A stretch of DNA of 64,000 bases from a virus (Duplodnaviria > Caudoviricetes), in the IMG/VR virus record IMGVR_UViG_3300029305_011823. One strand, given 5' to 3'. Both the position numbers and the translations under genes were made by a program. Shown one piece after another: positions 9,432-18,522 of this stretch. Every line of letters begins with the position of its first letter. The stretch's first letter is position 1. The notes beneath the pieces are model-generated. The model was not told where the DNA came from, searched no databases, and saw only the letters and a program-made list of their open reading frames with translations.

Positions 9432-9653
9432 TTAATATCTCCAAACTATTCTTCCTGTTGTTAAATCATAAACAGAAATTTCAAAATCTACCTTATCATT
9501 TTCAACTATAGCTATTTTATTTTGTCTTAGTTTACCTGATAAAGAACAAGTTGCTGTAACTTCAACTTCATCAGCTTTCACTATAAATTTTGCTCCTGGT
9601 AAGCATTTTATAACCGTACCTTTTAATTTCATTATATCTTTACTTTTTGCCAT
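9432..9653 (-). CDS. infA: translation initiation factor IF-1
   Basis: MAKSKDIMKLKGTV..LPGAKF..SGKLRQNKI..D.V..E.S.YDLT.GRIVWR. Confidence 0.93.
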   Translation of the reverse strand: MAKSKDIMKLKGTVIKCLPGAKFIVKADEVEVTATCSLSGKLRQNKIAIVENDKVDFEISVYDLTTGRIVWRY

Positions 9654-9669: not shown

Positions 9670-12066
9670 TTATTTAAACCATATTTCGTCCCCATACTGC
9701 TTGATAGTCCTATCAGTTGTAAATGGGAAACTGTTTGCTATATTTATTAAACATTTTTTGTTCCATTCTCTTCTGTTATTTTTGTATAAACTATTCATTT
9801 CATATGTTTTATCAAGATATTCTTGTAAATCTGTTAATGTGAAGAAATGGTCATTTGACATTAATTCCCAATATAATTCTTCACCAGCTCTATCAATTTG
9901 TTTTAACATTTCCATTGCTTTTTCTATCTTGTTGTTTGTTTTAACTATATGTCTTCCACTTAAATCTGTCCATGTAGCATATCTATTTAAAACTTCATCT
10001 TTACGTAAACCGAATAAGAATATATTTTCTTCTCCTACATATTCAGTTATCTCAACATTAGCACCATCTAATGTACCTAATGTTAAAGCACCATTCATCA
10101 TGAATTTCATATTTGATGTTCCAGATGCTTCTTTAGATGCAGTTGGTATTTGTTCAGATATATCTGTAGCAGGTATTATTAATTCTGCTTTAGAAACATT
10201 GTAATCTTCTATAAATACAAGTTTCATTTTTCCATTTACTCGTTCGTCATTATTTATAACTTTTGCTAATTTATTAAATACTTTTATAACATTCTTAGCT
10301 GATCTATAACTAGCTGCCGCTTTACCAGCCATTATAAATGTCATAGGATAAAATTCTTTTTCTGGATTTTCTAATAAATCGTTGTATATCATCATTATTC
10401 TTAATACGTTCATTATTTGTCTTTTATACATATGAATACGTTTTATCTGAACGTCGAATATACTATTAGGATCTAAATCCAATCCTGTCTCTCTTATAAA
10501 TCTTTGTTTATTAAGCATTTTAATATCATTTATTGTCCATAATATTGCACCTGTATCATGGAATTGTTCTAATTCTTTCATTTGTTTAAGATCCTGTTTC
10601 CAACCTTCTCCTAATATTGTAGTTATGAATCTAGTTAAATCAGGATTTGCTAATAATAACCATCTTCTATGTGCTATACCATTTGTTTTGTTATTAAATG
10701 CTTGTGGTTTATCCATATAGAAATCTTTAAGAGTTTCTTCTTCTAATATTTCTGTGTGTAATGCAGCAACTCCGTTTATACTATAGCTACACATACAATC
10801 CATATTAGCCATACGTACGTTTCCGTAGTTATCTATTATTTTCATTCTATCTATTTTAGATGTATTATATCCTTTTACTTTTCTTAAATACTCTACATAT
10901 CTTCTGTCTATTTCTTGTATTATCATATATATTCTTGGAATTAAAGATTGTAACATATACCCACTCCATACTTCAAGAGCTTCTTGCATTATTGTGTGGT
11001 TTGTATAACTACAAACTTTAGTTGTTACATTCCAAGCTTCATCCCATCCTAATCCTTCTTCATCCATTAACACCCTCATTAATTCAGGTATAACTAAAGA
11101 TGGATGTGTATCATTTATATGAACTGCAAGATGTTTATCTAGTTCTCTTAAATTCACTCCACGTTTTTTGAATTTATTAACTAAAGATTGTATACCTGCA
11201 GAACATAGGAAATATTCTTGTTTTAATCTTAATTCTTTACCTTCATGTGTAGAATCATCTGGATAAAGATTCTCACATATTTGATTTATTAATGTCCTTC
11301 TTCTTTGCATGTTATTATCATGACAATAGTTTATTCCACATTCATCAAGAATATTATAAGAAGGCATATCAGCTTCCCAAGTTCTTAAATAGTTCACTGT
11401 ATTATTTTCATAACCAGGAACTGGTATATCATATGCTCTTGCTACTATTGGTTCATAGTTTTCAAGAATTGGAACTAAATCATTTCCATTAGTTTCAAAT
11501 CTAACCGAACCTCTAAGTTTGATTATATATTCTTCACCTGATTTTGAATCCCAAGCATAATAACCATTCTTAAGCCATCTATCAGGTAACTCAACTTGCT
11601 CATCATTAAATATTTCTTGTTTGAACAACCCATGTCTATATCTTATAGTTTGACCATAACCTGCATATTCTAAACACGCCATTGAATCTATGAAACAAGC
11701 AGCTAATCTACCTAATCCTCCGTTTGCTATAGCTGGTTCTGGTTCTACTTCAACTAATTCATTTAAATCCCAATCAAGGTCATCCATAACTTCATTCACT
11801 ACATCTTCTAATCCTCTATTTAAAATTATTGATTTAAGTTGTTTTCCTAATAAGAACTCTATTGAAAAATAATGTACCTCTTTCTTCCCTTCAAGATTTT
11901 GATTACATCTTTTCCAATCTTCTGACATTGTATCTTTTAAAGAATTTGCTAAAACGTCAAATCTTTCAAATACATTTAATTGATCTACATTCTTTTGAAA
12001 TATTTTAGTTGCGTTTTTTTCAATTAACTTTTTAAAATTATCAACTCTATCAAATTCTTTTATCAT
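9670..12066 (-). CDS. glgP: glycogen/maltodextrin phosphorylase
   Basis: NGGLGRLAACF, LYPDDS, LRLKQEY, HINDTHP, NKTNGI, QIKRIHMYKRQ, PLP-site EASGTSNMKF, GTLDGANVE. Confidence 0.96.
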   Translation of the reverse strand: MIKEFDRVDNFKKLIEKNATKIFQKNVDQLNVFERFDVLANSLKDTMSEDWKRCNQNLEGKKEVHYFSIEFLLGKQLKSIILNRGLEDVVNEVMDDLDWDLNELVEVEPEPAIANGGLGRLAACFIDSMACLEYAGYGQTIRYRHGLFKQEIFNDEQVELPDRWLKNGYYAWDSKSGEEYIIKLRGSVRFETNGNDLVPILENYEPIVARAYDIPVPGYENNTVNYLRTWEADMPSYNILDECGINYCHDNNMQRRRTLINQICENLYPDDSTHEGKELRLKQEYFLCSAGIQSLVNKFKKRGVNLRELDKHLAVHINDTHPSLVIPELMRVLMDEEGLGWDEAWNVTTKVCSYTNHTIMQEALEVWSGYMLQSLIPRIYMIIQEIDRRYVEYLRKVKGYNTSKIDRMKIIDNYGNVRMANMDCMCSYSINGVAALHTEILEEETLKDFYMDKPQAFNNKTNGIAHRRWLLLANPDLTRFITTILGEGWKQDLKQMKELEQFHDTGAILWTINDIKMLNKQRFIRETGLDLDPNSIFDVQIKRIHMYKRQIMNVLRIMMIYNDLLENPEKEFYPMTFIMAGKAAASYRSAKNVIKVFNKLAKVINNDERVNGKMKLVFIEDYNVSKAELIIPATDISEQIPTASKEASGTSNMKFMMNGALTLGTLDGANVEITEYVGEENIFLFGLRKDEVLNRYATWTDLSGRHIVKTNNKIEKAMEMLKQIDRAGEELYWELMSNDHFFTLTDLQEYLDKTYEMNSLYKNNRREWNKKCLINIANSFPFTTDRTIKQYGDEIWFK

Positions 12067-12265
12067 ATTAATTATTCTCCTTTTCCTATTCCATAATTTT
12101 ATTAATTCATTGTATATACCCATATAAATTTTAACAAAAAAGGAAGCTTCGAAACTTCCTTTTTATTCTCATTATTAATGTTTCCTTACGGTTCATTGAT
12201 GTAACTGAACCATTTGCTATTAAATATTTTGTAAGTTTTGTCATCTGTTTTTTCTCCTCACATGA

Positions 12266-12796
12266 TTATTTTAATACATCTTTTATCCAACTAGGACATG
12301 TTGTTTTAGCACCTGATCTTCTCCAAGCTTTCCACAACTCTTCACGTTTCTTTGTTTCCTCATCTACAACTGTATATGTTATTTTAACATTAGTTGTATT
12401 CGGGTCTCTCCAAATTTCTAAGAATTCATTAACAGCTTCAGCTTCAGATACTTCTCCTTCTAATGGTGTATTCTTTTCTAAATCGTAAACCATAGTTCTA
12501 GCATTATTACTTAATTCATCATTTCGTCTTGCTAAATCTAATATCACTGATATATGAATGAAATCTTGTTCATCTGGATAAACGTCACCATATTGATCCG
12601 TGAAACTAACAGTTATTGTATCTTTATATTCATCTTTTATATCATTCCATATTATTGAATACGTATGCATTCGGTACCCAAAATAATTTCCAATATCTTT
12701 ATATTTCACCCATATACCGTCATTATAAGCAACATAACCAATTTCAACTTCTTTACCATACTTCATTAATTTGTAAAATTTTAATTCACTATTCAT
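12266..12796 (-). CDS. BRO-N-like DNA-binding protein
   Basis: IWVKYKDIGNYFGY...FIHISVILDL pattern resembles Bro-N. Confidence 0.5.
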   Translation of the reverse strand: MNSELKFYKLMKYGKEVEIGYVAYNDGIWVKYKDIGNYFGYRMHTYSIIWNDIKDEYKDTITVSFTDQYGDVYPDEQDFIHISVILDLARRNDELSNNARTMVYDLEKNTPLEGEVSEAEAVNEFLEIWRDPNTTNVKITYTVVDEETKKREELWKAWRRSGAKTTCPSWIKDVLK

Positions 12797-12825
12797 AATA
12801 TCATTCTCCTTTATTTTTATAATTT

Positions 12826-13181
12826 TTATTGTTAACATGATTAAGTCTAATAATGTTGTATATACTTATTATATCCTAATTACTCGAGCTTGGCTGGTAC
12901 TCATACCATTCACACCTTTTCAGGTTAACCCCTCTCTTTCTCTCAGGATTAATGTCTTCAGCATAGATTTTAAAATCCTTAGCTTACTATAACATTAGAA
13001 TATCCATTCACCTAATTACTCGAGCTTGGCTGGTACTCATACCATTCACACCTTTTCAGGTTAACCCCTCTCTTTCTCTCAGGTTCATACTTTTGGCATA
13101 GTCTTAGACCTTAGCCTACGGTATTAGAATATTCAGTTTTGTATTTTTAATTATTATTAAACTTAATCATGTTAACAATAA
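12826..13181 (-). ncRNA. unknown structured RNA: two tandem domains inside a 29-bp terminal inverted repeat
   Basis: IR 12826-12854 / 13153-13181 (one G-U on minus strand); identical 73-nt direct repeat; covarying hairpins; late promoter at 13179-13190. Confidence 0.7.
12875..13083. repeat. perfect 73-bp direct repeat, 2 copies (12875-12947, 13011-13083), period 136
   Basis: cctaattactcgagcttggctggtactcataccattcacaccttttcaggttaacccctctctttctctcagg read twice. Confidence 0.95.
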
Positions 13182-13205
13182 TTACTTGTTATATTAAATA
13201 TAGTT

Positions 13206-13237
13206 AATCAATAAGGATAAATTTATCCTTATTGATT
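13206..13237 (-). terminator. intrinsic terminator-like hairpin
   Basis: aatcaataaggata-aatt-tatccttattgatt after the 13251 gene stop. Confidence 0.6.
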
Positions 13238-13250
13238 ATTTGATTCATCA

Positions 13251-14165
13251 TTAGAATAAATGTTTAAATTTTTCGTTATTGATTTTAAATTTGTTCATTT
13301 TAGCATATGCTAATTTTATATTTTCAGGAACTTTCATATCTTTATTATTTACAACTGCTTCTAATAATTTATAATTAAGATATTTATCTATTAACGTTTC
13401 TTTTCTTCCTGTTCTTTCATTAAATCTTACTATTGAATTACAAGCTGCGTGTAATGCTTTTTCAAATTTTTCTTCAGATAATGCACCACAAGTTTTATAT
13501 AAGAATGATTGTATTCTTGTTGCATATGGTTTATGTTTTTCATCTATATTCTTATCTATTCCTGCTTTACAACATGCTGTTACAAATTCTTCTGGTTGTA
13601 AATCTGGAATTGCTTGTGTTAATATTGCTCCTAAAACATTTTCACTTATAGCACTTATTGAATATTTACCATTATATGCTTTAAATAATATCTCTGGTAA
13701 ATTTTCTAAAATGTTTTCAACTTCTTTAGATCTAAAGAATGGAGTTACTTCATATCCCCTAACTGTTTTAACTGAAGACATTAATATTACTATATCAGTT
13801 TCTTTATGTCCTGTTATATTCATTCCTAATTCTATTTCTCTTAATTGATATCCTAACATATAAGCTTCATTTGCTAATTCTTTATCTTCTATATGATGTG
13901 TTGCTGTATATAATACAAATGCCATATTAAAGTTAATTCTTGAATCTCCTGAATTTATTAAATATGAAATTGTATTCATAAATCTTTTTCCTCTAATGAT
14001 TTCACACACTTCATTAAATTCTTTCTTAGCTTTATAATTATACATGTTATTTACAAAATAATCTATTATCACTTCTTGATAATCTATTACAGCTGCTTCT
14101 AATTCTTGCATTGTTAAATCATAACTCATTTCATTTACAAATCCTTTTATATTTAGTTCTCTCAT
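13251..14165 (-). CDS. hypothetical protein (304 aa, helical)
   Basis: ORF with AGGAGG RBS. Confidence 0.7.
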   Translation of the reverse strand: MRELNIKGFVNEMSYDLTMQELEAAVIDYQEVIIDYFVNNMYNYKAKKEFNEVCEIIRGKRFMNTISYLINSGDSRINFNMAFVLYTATHHIEDKELANEAYMLGYQLREIELGMNITGHKETDIVILMSSVKTVRGYEVTPFFRSKEVENILENLPEILFKAYNGKYSISAISENVLGAILTQAIPDLQPEEFVTACCKAGIDKNIDEKHKPYATRIQSFLYKTCGALSEEKFEKALHAACNSIVRFNERTGRKETLIDKYLNYKLLEAVVNNKDMKVPENIKLAYAKMNKFKINNEKFKHLF

Positions 14166-14216
14166 ATACTTACCTCCTAAAATTTTTATAATTTATTTTT
14201 TGGAACATATAAATTA

Positions 14217-14567
14217 CTAATCTAAGTTATCCCATTCTTTAAATTGTGCTTTTAAGCTCTCAACATGTGTTTGCTTCCATTCATCTCTAACTTCTGGTAT
14301 CCTTTTAACAAATTCATCTTTTATTACAGACTCTTCTGCCCAAGATATAATTTTCTTACAAAAATCATTCACATATAATTCTCCTAATTCATCTAAGGCT
14401 TCTTCTTTTTCTTTATCACTCATTGAATTATGAGTTAAGCAATACATTGTTATTGCTCTACTATATTCATTTCCTTTCATTGCTTCAACAGCTGCTAAAT
14501 CTATCGCTTCACTAAGACTAAACTCTTTATTTCTTTTTTTCATTATATCTTCTCTTTTTATAGCCAT
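14217..14567 (-). CDS. hypothetical early protein
   Basis: ORF, RBS, early promoter at ~14603-14639. Confidence 0.65.
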   Translation of the reverse strand: MAIKREDIMKKRNKEFSLSEAIDLAAVEAMKGNEYSRAITMYCLTHNSMSDKEKEEALDELGELYVNDFCKKIISWAEESVIKDEFVKRIPEVRDEWKQTHVESLKAQFKEWDNLD

Positions 14568-14676
14568 GGTATCTACCTCCAAATATTTTTATTTTACTTC
14601 ATCTATATAATATAGCATTGAAATAGCACCTTTTTACAGTAATAAAATAAGTTATGGTGACTTAAATCACCATAAC

Positions 14677-14865
14677 TTATTCTTTATTTTTATCATGATT
14701 TTTCTTTATTACTAAATATAGTTCTTTCAATTTAAGGAATATTGCTGCACAAGCTACAGCAGATAATAAACCTTTCATAACCACGTCTTGTATAACGATT
14801 AATCCTGTGACTAATAACATACCTATTATAAGCACATCGCAAACTAAATTGAAAGTTCCTTTCAT
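14677..14865 (-). CDS. small 2-TM membrane protein
   Basis: Hydrophobic ORF with basic tail. Confidence 0.55.
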   Translation of the reverse strand: MKGTFNLVCDVLIIGMLLVTGLIVIQDVVMKGLLSAVACAAIFLKLKELYLVIKKNHDKNKE

Positions 14866-14867
14866 CT

Positions 14868-15074
14868 CTACTCACCCTTATGTCTTATTTTGTAATGCCC
14901 ATATATTCCTAATCCAGCTAATCCTATTAAACCTAATAGGAATCCGATTGCTGCCCAAATTCTAGCGTCAAAATTCATTCCATGTTCAACATTTAATTTC
15001 TCTGCCCATCTAAATCCTATGAATCCAAATAATATCCAAGCTATTAATTGTATTAACATTTCCATTTTTTTCAC
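14868..15074 (-). CDS. small membrane protein, paralog of 52020-52232
   Basis: WAAIGFLLGLIGL vs WSAVIGFIFGASGL. Confidence 0.55.
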   Translation of the reverse strand: MKKMEMLIQLIAWILFGFIGFRWAEKLNVEHGMNFDARIWAAIGFLLGLIGLAGLGIYGHYKIRHKGE

Positions 15075-15113
15075 GCTCCTTTTCTAAATAATTGTATATC
15101 GTATTATAAAAAA

Positions 15114-15782
15114 TTATTCTGATATATAAAATACAATCAATCTACCATTCTTAACACTATAATCACATGTATATAATCCAACTATATGACTATTCTCATC
15201 ATATTCAACACCATTAATAAAATAATCACTATTTTGTTTTATCAATGCCACAGCATCAGATGTTTCCATATTGTCAATTTGTTTATAAAAGAAATTGTTA
15301 TTTGTAACATAATAAGCAAACGGCTTGAATGTTTTTGTATTTTCTGCCGTTTCTATAGTCAATACAGACTCTTTAAATCTTTGATGGTCTTTTTGAAAAT
15401 AATGTAAGTTATTAAACATTGTTCCATTTTTCATACTATGTCCGTACAACATTGTATACTTACCATCAAAAGGTTCATCACTAGAGCAATAGAATATAGC
15501 TCCACTATTGCTTTCATTCCCTTGATAATCGTGATTGATATAAAAAATATTATCTGTATATGTCATAACAGGATAGTCTATAGCAGTTCCTTCTACTGTT
15601 ATCCAATCATATCCATGCTCTTTTAAATACTTACTAGTATCATTTGATCGTGTTTTTTCGTTTTGTACTTCTTCATAAGTTTTCTTAGCTTTATAATATT
15701 CCCATTGCTTTTGACCAATTTCCCATGAACTTATAGATAATACTGCAATTAATATTACATTTATAACATTCTTTAATTTCAT
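15114..15782 (-). CDS. srtB: class B sortase
   Basis: N-terminal TM anchor, WI.VEGT.IDYPV, FYINHD...SGAIF, catalytic YGH, LYTC and R (GRLIV). Confidence 0.9.
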   Translation of the reverse strand: MKLKNVINVILIAVLSISSWEIGQKQWEYYKAKKTYEEVQNEKTRSNDTSKYLKEHGYDWITVEGTAIDYPVMTYTDNIFYINHDYQGNESNSGAIFYCSSDEPFDGKYTMLYGHSMKNGTMFNNLHYFQKDHQRFKESVLTIETAENTKTFKPFAYYVTNNNFFYKQIDNMETSDAVALIKQNSDYFINGVEYDENSHIVGLYTCDYSVKNGRLIVFYISE

Positions 15783-15845
15783 AAATTATACCTCCTATAC
15801 TAAAATAAAAAATAGAGTGGAGAATCTTTCTCCACTCTATTTTAC

Positions 15846-16439
15846 TTATTCTTCATCTTTCTTTTTATTAACTACAAATAATCCTATACTTGCTGCTGCT
15901 ACTGTTATTGCTCCAACCATCATACCAGCATCTCCTGTATTTGGATCATGTATTTCTGGTTCTTCTTCTACTGGTGGATCGACTGGTTCGTCATCTTTAA
16001 AATCAGGCACACCGTTTCCATCTTCATCTTGTGGATATTTATAATCTATTCCTATTTTTACAGTTTTTACATCTGATGCTCCAAGAGGATCGTCAAGATC
16101 GTCAAGATCTACACTATTACGTATCAATCCAGACCCATTATTTTCTACATTTATTTTTTCCATTGGTACATTAACTTCAGATCCATCTTTTAATATTAAT
16201 TTAACGTATGTTATATTATAATTTTCAACCCATGCTGCTTTTATATCTGCTAATAAAATATTAGATGGTCCATCTAGTTCTAAAAAAACATTGTTATCTT
16301 GGAATATGAACACTTCATCTAATTTTATATTTTCAACAATTAACGCATCATTAACATGTACATCGTCTGCAAATACATTTCCGCTCATTCCAAATACTAA
16401 TAAACCTGCTACTAATAAACTTTTAACTTTTTTGTTCAT
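15846..16439 (-). CDS. secreted cell-wall-anchored protein, putative sortase substrate
   Basis: Signal peptide (..NVFA), acidic Pro-rich stalk, sorting signal DPNTG + hydrophobic helix + KKK tail. Confidence 0.8.
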   Translation of the reverse strand: MNKKVKSLLVAGLLVFGMSGNVFADDVHVNDALIVENIKLDEVFIFQDNNVFLELDGPSNILLADIKAAWVENYNITYVKLILKDGSEVNVPMEKINVENNGSGLIRNSVDLDDLDDPLGASDVKTVKIGIDYKYPQDEDGNGVPDFKDDEPVDPPVEEEPEIHDPNTGDAGMMVGAITVAAASIGLFVVNKKKDEE

Positions 16440-17054: not shown

Positions 17055-17082
17055 AAATAAGATACCTTGAGGTATCTTATTT
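17055..17082 (-). terminator. terminator hairpin of AGATAC...GTATCT family
   Basis: aaataagatacc-ttga-ggtatcttattt overlapping stop codon; similar at ~17782, 20523, 22164, 30539. Confidence 0.65.
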
Positions 17083-17703: not shown

Positions 17704-17802
17704 AATATCATTTCTCCTTCTAATTTTTATTTTACCTCACTATTATAATATGGTATCGTTTTTCTACAAATTACAGAAAAAAATAAGATACCTTAAGGTA
17801 TC

Positions 17803-18522
17803 TTATTCATCTAAAGTTTTTGGTAAGAAATAGTCGTTCATTACTAAGTCTGTCATTAATCCTGCACCTATAAAGAATACTGCTGCAGAATTTAATGTTG
17901 TTTTATTTGATAATTTATCTGTTAATTCATTCATTGCAACATAACCATCTCTTGCTATCTTTTTATTCATTTCAGCTTTCATAACCATATCATCAGCTCT
18001 CATAGACATAAGTTCTTTTAATGAAACATTTGCACCTACTGTAAGTAACGCTATAGTTTCTTGGTCAGAGTTTCTTGAGTTTTTATCATGACCTGCAACC
18101 TGACCAGTTATCATATTTCTTTCACTTATATCCGTAGATATACCTATCTTCTTGAAGTTAAGTTGTTGTAAACGTTTTATATTTAAATATCCAACTAGAC
18201 ATTCATGTTTAGTTATTATTGGATTATTTGGATCTTGACTTGCATAAGGTAAAACAACTTTTTCAAATAATGGTACATCTAAAAATTTTGCAGCCTTTTC
18301 TATATTTTCTATTTTTAATGGATTTTCGTAATCAACCATAGTTGCTGTTAAATATGGGTCATCTTGTTCAAATAGCAATTTAAAGTATTGATCGAATTCA
18401 GCATCTGACATACTTTTAAACTTATTTCTATAATATTCAGTGTTTCTTCCAGATGGGTCAAATAAATCAAAGAATCCATATATTAAATCTTCCATCTCTT
18501 TTCTTTTAGCTTTATTCATCAT
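17803..18522 (-). CDS. RNA polymerase beta extreme C-terminal subunit (virion RNAP, phiKZ gp149-like)
   Basis: VGYLNIKRLQQ...ITGQV...SDQETIALLTVGA..LKELMSMRADD parallels beta region I (GYMYMLKL...TQQP...EMEVWAL...LQEMLTVKSDD). Confidence 0.8.
   Translation of the reverse strand: MMNKAKRKEMEDLIYGFFDLFDPSGRNTEYYRNKFKSMSDAEFDQYFKLLFEQDDPYLTATMVDYENPLKIENIEKAAKFLDVPLFEKVVLPYASQDPNNPIITKHECLVGYLNIKRLQQLNFKKIGISTDISERNMITGQVAGHDKNSRNSDQETIALLTVGANVSLKELMSMRADDMVMKAEMNKKIARDGYVAMNELTDKLSNKTTLNSAAVFFIGAGLMTDLVMNDYFLPKTLDE

Follow-up and report, generated by a model that had tools for sequence, protein, structure and literature searches.

Antisense RNAs of the C4/CI type precede phage antirepressor (Bro-N/KilA-N) operons, and an 11-nucleotide (nt) receptor together with a GAAA loop recurs in the specificity domain of type B RNase P, in c-di-GMP-I and Moco riboswitches, and in group I introns. 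In the type III toxin-antitoxin systems ToxIN, CptIN, and TenpIN, a variable number of repeats precedes a single gene (PMC3401426), and in AbiF an RNA of two motifs binds its cognate protein in cis as well as in trans (10.1101/2025.04.15.648962). Here we analyze a locus that recalls these systems, in a 64,000-nt stretch of viral DNA (IMG/VR record IMGVR_UViG_3300029305_011823; the window), where a late promoter is followed by a structured RNA of two tandem domains and by the gene for a 176-amino acid (aa) protein. The constant placement of this RNA before the same gene suggests that RNA and protein form a partnership of a kind not yet described. The window is part of a 128-kb virus contig with a GC content of 28% that encodes split RNA polymerase beta subunits, by which its nearest cultured relatives are the Bacillus phages AR9 and PBS1 (36% identity), and the runs containing the stretch are metagenomes of cattle gut and faeces; the source virus is an AR9-like jumbo phage of the cattle gut.

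Each domain of the RNA is made up of a self-complementary linker, a hairpin arm (P2, a loop-E-type loop, and the receptor), and a second arm, in which P4, a purine-rich loop, P5, and P6 lead to a three-way junction that bears a GAAA hairpin (loop at 13057-13054 in domain A) and a variable hairpin. The RNA homologues were located via the downstream protein, after DNA searches had failed. For 15 homologous domains, RNAalifold returned 31 pairs, identical to the fold drawn by hand; 13 of the 31 show changes on both sides and 98.7% of the alignment cells pair, which none of 500 shuffles reaches in a test that is inflated by the relatedness of the sequences. Covariation is seen in six of the seven helices, and pairing drops to 24-45% in slid registers. 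Moreover, the folding z-score of the RNA region is -7.6, and no shuffle of 100 was equally stable. The structured RNA is real and conserved. The 11-nt receptor and the GAAA loop are invariant in all 15 domains, with the outer pair of the receptor flipped to G-C, and because of this invariance and the covariation, tertiary folding of a multi-domain RNA is supported, as the initial annotation of the window had proposed.

That annotation had also correctly located both receptor hairpins, both GAAA hairpins, and an identical 73-nt block in the two domains, which is an exact repeat (13083-13011 and 12947-12875, spaced 136 nt). The block had been described as loose hairpins, but it folds as a stem, a purine-rich internal loop, a second stem, and the three-way junction. 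Likewise, the palindromes GGUUAACC and CUCGAG, listed as features, are unconserved in the homologues, and the loop of a hairpin defined by its UGAG cap varies freely. Within the close family (loci L041-L044, L046-L050, and L052-L053), there are invariant junction nucleotides. This invariance and the compact fold would suit a transcript-processing ribozyme of a new class; a ribozyme had also been suggested at the outset, and we regard this reading as very improbable. The RNA contains no core of the hammerhead, hairpin, pistol, twister, glmS, group I, or group II ribozymes; a CUGANGA-like 7-mer in domain B sits in a covarying helix; and variable copy number would be unexpected of a ribozyme.

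The number of domains does vary, with two at L041, L046, and L048, four at L043, and one at L049 and L050 (two independent assemblies). The earlier description of the RNA as bivalent thus holds for a state that occurs, but not for the only one, since one, two, and four domains exist. A backward joint in a DNA run, from 13145 to 12859, fits a duplication of the dimer as in L043. The 5' halves of domains A and B remain distinct across phages (85% identity within a type and 64% between types), while the 3' halves resemble each other more closely inside one genome (88%) than across genomes (77%), and the exact 73-nt block is therefore explained as homogenization. This combination of different 5' halves and homogenized 3' halves suggests that the two domains may occupy non-equivalent positions in a dimer. 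Pairing between linkers is predicted in three of four two-domain RNAs (probability 0.73 in the window, 0.89-0.98 in L048 and L046, and 0.01 in L041), cofolding of single-domain RNAs as dimers gains 6-13 kcal/mol, and a change at 13004 in two sister strains turns linker B into a perfect palindrome. Compared with shuffles, the linker palindrome is weak (p 0.32, 0.05, and 0.08), and we treat predicted dimer formation through the linkers as a lead only.

The late promoter of AR9 reads AACA-(6N)-TA/G, where the final purine is the transcription start (PMC5312081). In this genome, the AACA-N6-TA spacing occurs at 39 sites before genes on the sense strand, compared to 4-11 sites for other spacings. 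Because of this enrichment, the promoter assignment is sound and +1 is placed at 13179. The initial annotation had recognized the motif, but had set +1 at the start of the adjoining inverted repeat rather than two bases inside its arm. The same motif lies 5' of the RNA in L046, L054, L055, and L058, and is absent from L041, L043, L048, and L049. The inverted repeat itself was borne out, with two 29-nt arms (13181-13153 pairing with 12854-12826) and a single G-U. These arms form the closing stem P0, which is 27 bp here because of the position of the start and 27-29 bp overall, encloses P1, which in turn encloses the domains, and ends 30-39 nt before the start codon. P0 covaries, and G-U pairs are tolerated on the transcribed strand (7 positions across 8 loci). 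Contigs of the RNA library X17 cover part of the RNA and the gene; level and strand are unreadable and DNA is possibly present, and this coverage was not counted as expression.

Near-perfect arms with a conserved motif, in a mobile cassette whose protein has a DNA-binding fold, would also be expected if the locus acted as DNA, with the arms as terminal inverted repeats of a miniature transposon or as operator sites for the Bro-N protein. We consider such a role improbable, and disfavored for the inner domains in particular, where covariation and tertiary motifs make sense for RNA alone. Moreover, the arms do not bound the unit that is lost in sister strains, their tolerance of G-U is that of a transcribed helix, and L055 lacks long arms.

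Table 1. Features of the RNA-gene cassette (window coordinates)
Feature	Position	Strand	Remarks
Whole cassette (hairpin, promoter, RNA, gene)	12251..13250		Missing in sister strains
Perfect hairpin	13205..13238	-	Likely terminator of upstream 304-aa gene; within segment missing from empty-site strains
AR9-type late promoter, AACA-N6-TA	13179..13190	-	Motif match; +1 inferred at 13179
5' arm of closing stem P0	13153..13181	-	UAAG-U-Y-UA-like short motif retained even in distant homologues
5' strand of P1	13141..13144	-	Helix closing the domain array
Domain A	13011..13135	-	P2, loop-E-type loop, 11-nt receptor (13115-13110 with 13100-13096), P4, purine-rich loop, P5, P6, three-way junction
Self-complementary 8-mer, domain A leader	13127..13134	-	Predicted pairing with linker copy, probability 0.73
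Domain B	12875..13006	-	Longer P2 with AGUA/GAA loop; receptor (12983-12978 with 12965-12961); GAAA at 12921-12918
Self-complementary 8-mer of domain B	13005-12998	-	
3' strand of P1	12862..12865	-	
3' arm of closing stem P0	12826..12854	-	No U-tract 3' of it
Shine-Dalgarno sequence	12806..12811	-	Predicted unpaired (P paired 0.04)
176-aa gene	12266..12796	-	Bro-N/KilA-N fold, residues 1-111 (predicted); basic tail with conserved terminal S/T-C-P-x-W motif

The linkage of the RNA to its gene is strict. The downstream protein forms 21 clusters of 46-100% identity, and a profile search with it recovered distant relatives at 20-27% identity. Wherever a homologue has upstream DNA, the leader RNA or its 3' end lies directly 5' of the gene, as it does in all nine homologue groups checked, down to ~21% protein identity. 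The short contigs L045 (protein P0070, 47% identical) and L057 hold the 3' end of such an RNA, and only the 3' arm was seen upstream of P0081, while the RNA is present upstream of P0076, P0098, and P0077 (21-27% identical) on long contigs. L054 and L058 share this promoter and, 3' of it, arms of 28-29 bp that have the central motif in common and enclose an inner RNA of 136 nt; the RNA ends 33-39 nt before the start codon. L055 also has the promoter, and its inner RNA, whose topology is the same, is followed by a hairpin. These distant RNAs keep the topology, and their receptor and GAAA loop are both missing and their junction sequence has diverged. Such a topology is rare (0-4 of 300 shuffles, none as stable), and the shared abstract shape was obtained unaided in L055, in L049 and L054 with one further, minor hairpin, and in L058 with constraints. 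From position, promoter, P0 motif, and topology, we infer common descent of the close and distant RNAs. The RNA sequence diverges in step with the protein while the topology is kept, which fits a co-evolving pair. L054 carries another structured non-coding stretch with long hairpins (2262-2570), 5' of the cassette promoter.

The cassette is also lost and moved as a unit. In four runs, each from a different study, 12244/12250 is joined to 13251, so that hairpin, promoter, RNA, and gene are dropped together. In these empty-site strains, the 304-aa gene is joined directly to a 35-aa open reading frame (ORF), which is the order in L041, L043, L048, and L049; an empty site at this locus does not prove absence of a diverged cassette elsewhere in those strains. 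In relatives, the cassette occupies three positions near the 304-aa gene, on either side of the 35-aa ORF or behind the IF-1 gene, and its flanking genes are entirely different among homologues. The L055 phage is a close relative, with neighbors up to 90% identical, and its distant cassette stands at an unrelated locus, beside the helicase gene. Both RNA and gene are single-copy in the 128-kb contig. One conserved mobile accessory module of AR9-like jumbo phages, consisting of promoter, RNA, and gene, is the best explanation of these observations. The initial annotation had rightly noted a BRO-like gene as the downstream partner, but had seen it as a possible regulated target and missed the cassette.

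Several neighboring genes mark this region of the window. The conserved ~35-aa ORF (12140-12244, minus strand; start M-x-x-L-x-K-Y-L-I-A) marks the cassette insertion point, and the phage IF-1 gene (9432-9653, minus strand) adjoins the RNA cassette in several relatives. Sister strains likewise skip small genes at 14215-14584 and 14624-15115, and the neighborhood is therefore an accessory-gene hot spot. A phage glycogen phosphorylase gene (9670-12123, minus strand; 817 aa, 46% identical to a protein of the clostridial Acetoanaerobium) is not at the corresponding position in related phages. A sortase-like gene (15114-16439, minus strand), whose homologous loci have Pfam Sortase matches, adjoins a gene for a protein with a sorting signal. 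Because the phage carries this sortase and a clostridial-like glycogen phosphorylase, its gene content suggests that the host belongs to the Bacillota. An identical 27-nt self-complementary hairpin lies at 17056-17082 and 17781-17807, at the 3' ends of the RNA polymerase beta gene and the neighboring HD-type gene.

By structure modeling (pLDDT 74), the N-terminal domain of the partner protein is a predicted Bro-N/KilA-N fold, with fold matches to 4ye7 (Z 9.1; root-mean-square deviation 3.6 over 95 aligned residues) and MBP1 (Z 6.8). Matches to viral Bro-N proteins are found at E<1e-3, and a weak Pfam Bro-N match in 2 of 21 members. The long proteins P0073, P0078, and P0084 each have 6-10 weak Bro-N-like profile matches and may be Bro-N repeat proteins or noise.

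By analogy, we propose at about an even chance that the Bro-N protein is bound by the RNA of its own cassette, in a layout like those of the type III toxin-antitoxin and AbiF systems, neither of which the cassette belongs to. The late phage polymerase would make a single transcript of RNA and gene, whose 5' part would fold, as the covariation shows, into one to four compact domains inside the 27-29 bp stem. In the close subfamily, each GAAA loop would dock into an 11-nt receptor, and pairing between the self-complementary linkers could join two domains, or two molecules of one domain each, as a dimer. The long stem may protect the RNA or be cleaved by RNase III or another double-strand nuclease, and cleavage at P0 would free a stable RNA from the mRNA. 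This RNA would then bind its Bro-N protein, probably by mimicking the nucleic-acid target of the protein, as layout and linkage suggest. The bound protein might be held inactive, or its amount set, as by type III and AbiF RNA antitoxins, and additional domains would raise the RNA-to-protein ratio. A cognate pair is favored because of strict adjacency, joint loss, parallel divergence, a nucleic-acid-binding fold, and a basic tail, and because type III systems likewise place repeats in varying number before one gene.

Several points weigh against this proposal. Bro-N/KilA-N proteins are known as DNA binders, and MBP1 is among the fold matches of the partner protein, which is net acidic overall despite its basic tail and matched no PADLOC model. 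No intrinsic terminator lies between RNA and gene on the minus strand (12826-12796) or in the close family, and a hairpin is found there only in L055. The close-family covariance model gave a non-significant score on the distant RNAs (E about 4.5). Finally, the linkage is equally compatible with any cis leader. Such a leader, a tandem riboswitch or sensor that sets Bro-N expression via a metabolite or processing, would always lie 5' of the same gene, with P0 ending shortly before the start codon, and would have precedents in the receptor and GAAA loop of c-di-GMP-I and Moco riboswitches and in known tandem aptamers. We consider a role restricted to the leader quite unlikely. The Shine-Dalgarno sequence is unpaired in six of six close homologues (P 0.01-0.13) and has no partner within the RNA in any of nine, and the tandem riboswitch of the initial annotation lacks both a terminator and a platform that masks this sequence. 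The RNA contains no aptamer core of the c-di-GMP-I, Moco, glycine, T-box, or c-di-AMP riboswitches and has no Rfam match, and the junction sequence is lost in distant members, unlike a ligand pocket. A processing-based expression platform for a new riboswitch class is possible.

Alternatively, the RNA could be a free, abundant decoy or scaffold directed at a host factor (a defense protein, a ribosome-related factor, or a nuclease), with the Bro-N protein as a helper or fellow traveler that regulates the cassette at the DNA level. In having a late promoter of its own, a protective stem, rigid tertiary motifs, and possible dimerization, the RNA resembles orphan multimeric RNAs such as ROOL (PMC12990946), presence or absence from strain to strain is typical of counter-defense cargo, and the distinct 5' halves and homogenized 3' halves of domains A and B would suit such a role. 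We hold this to be unlikely, if a serious contender, since a binding surface should persist, yet the distant RNAs share little sequence, and strict adjacency to one gene family is left unexplained. Returning to the cognate pair, a bolder and decidedly tentative extension is that Bro-N/KilA-N proteins of these jumbo phages are ribonucleoproteins in which a dimerizing, copy-variable RNA scaffolds or gates the protein, as a new counter-defense or phage-competition module unrelated to known RNA antitoxins in either its parts or its mechanism.

In phages and large DNA viruses, Bro-N/KilA-N domains rank among the commonest uncharacterized proteins, and they are regarded as DNA binders. We found no paper linking Bro-N proteins to structured RNA in a literature coverage that is incomplete. 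A constant RNA partner, if true, would revise that view and open a way to learn what these proteins do. Because the RNA exists naturally in monomer, dimer, and tetramer forms, and one of its subfamilies acquired a tetraloop/receptor pair, it is suited to cryo-electron microscopy and to asking how tandem duplication yields RNA multimers, and the empty-site strains provide a natural control.

As had been anticipated, the RNA could be assigned to no known family. Across the body of the RNA, Rfam gave no match, whether at the gathering score or at E<=10, and it returned nothing credible for the window and four homologous loci. Exact and degenerate DNA patterns recovered no true homologue in IMG/VR, JGI metagenomes, and GTDB, and looser patterns returned chance matches or group I intron-like sequences that failed the covariance model; many IMG/VR matches to the receptor-plus-GAAA pattern (several of L068-L143) resemble phage group I introns. 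Likewise, blastn and tblastn gave no match in cultured phages, AR9, SA1, BpSp, LPJP1, and phiR1-37 gave no convincing RNA or protein match, the cassette was not found in those searched among 401 genomes of one bacterial phylum, and protein-pattern scans of viral and metagenome contigs gave no match. No antisense target was found to be conserved, either around the start codon or upstream, and a stretch of 14 nt over which domain B is complementary to the upstream gene (13772-13785) is unconserved and was rejected as chance.

Compared with type III toxin-antitoxin systems, the locus shares a promoter, tandem RNA repeats of variable number, one protein gene, and a mobile two-part module. It differs in its multi-helix domains of 125-137 nt instead of 31-60 nt pseudoknots, the fold being nested with 31 pairs over ~130 nt, in the long stem that encloses the array, in the absence, within the close family, of a terminator between repeats and gene, and in a Bro-N fold instead of a MazF-like ribonuclease; the partner protein has no Pfam or PADLOC match to the ToxN, CptN, or TenpN ribonuclease. 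With AbiF and RCd22, it shares a phage-borne location, two conserved RNA motifs 5' of a cognate gene, and Bacillota hosts (10.1101/2025.04.15.648962), but it has no Abi_2/HEPN protein and no Rfam match, and its domains are larger and contain the receptor and GAAA loop. Like C4/CI, the RNA is a structured leader of a Bro-N-fold gene and is probably processed out; unlike C4/CI, it has no conserved antisense target, Rfam match, or ANT domain, is much larger, and belongs to a lytic-type jumbo phage with its own polymerase. The receptor helix with loop E resembles P10.1 of RNase P, but none of the other defining elements of RNase P, c-di-GMP-I, Moco, or group I introns is present. In contrast to ROOL, GOLLD, OLE, and ARRPOF, with which it shares tetraloop/receptor and loop-E motifs, possible self-assembly, an origin in gut or rumen phages, and a task likewise unassigned (PMC12286853, PMC12990946), the RNA has no covariance-model match, a small repeated domain, and a fixed partner gene. 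Although a listing in the viral structured-RNA catalogue (PMC10690425) is still possible, we conclude that this is an undescribed RNA family in a mobile RNA-plus-Bro-N cassette.
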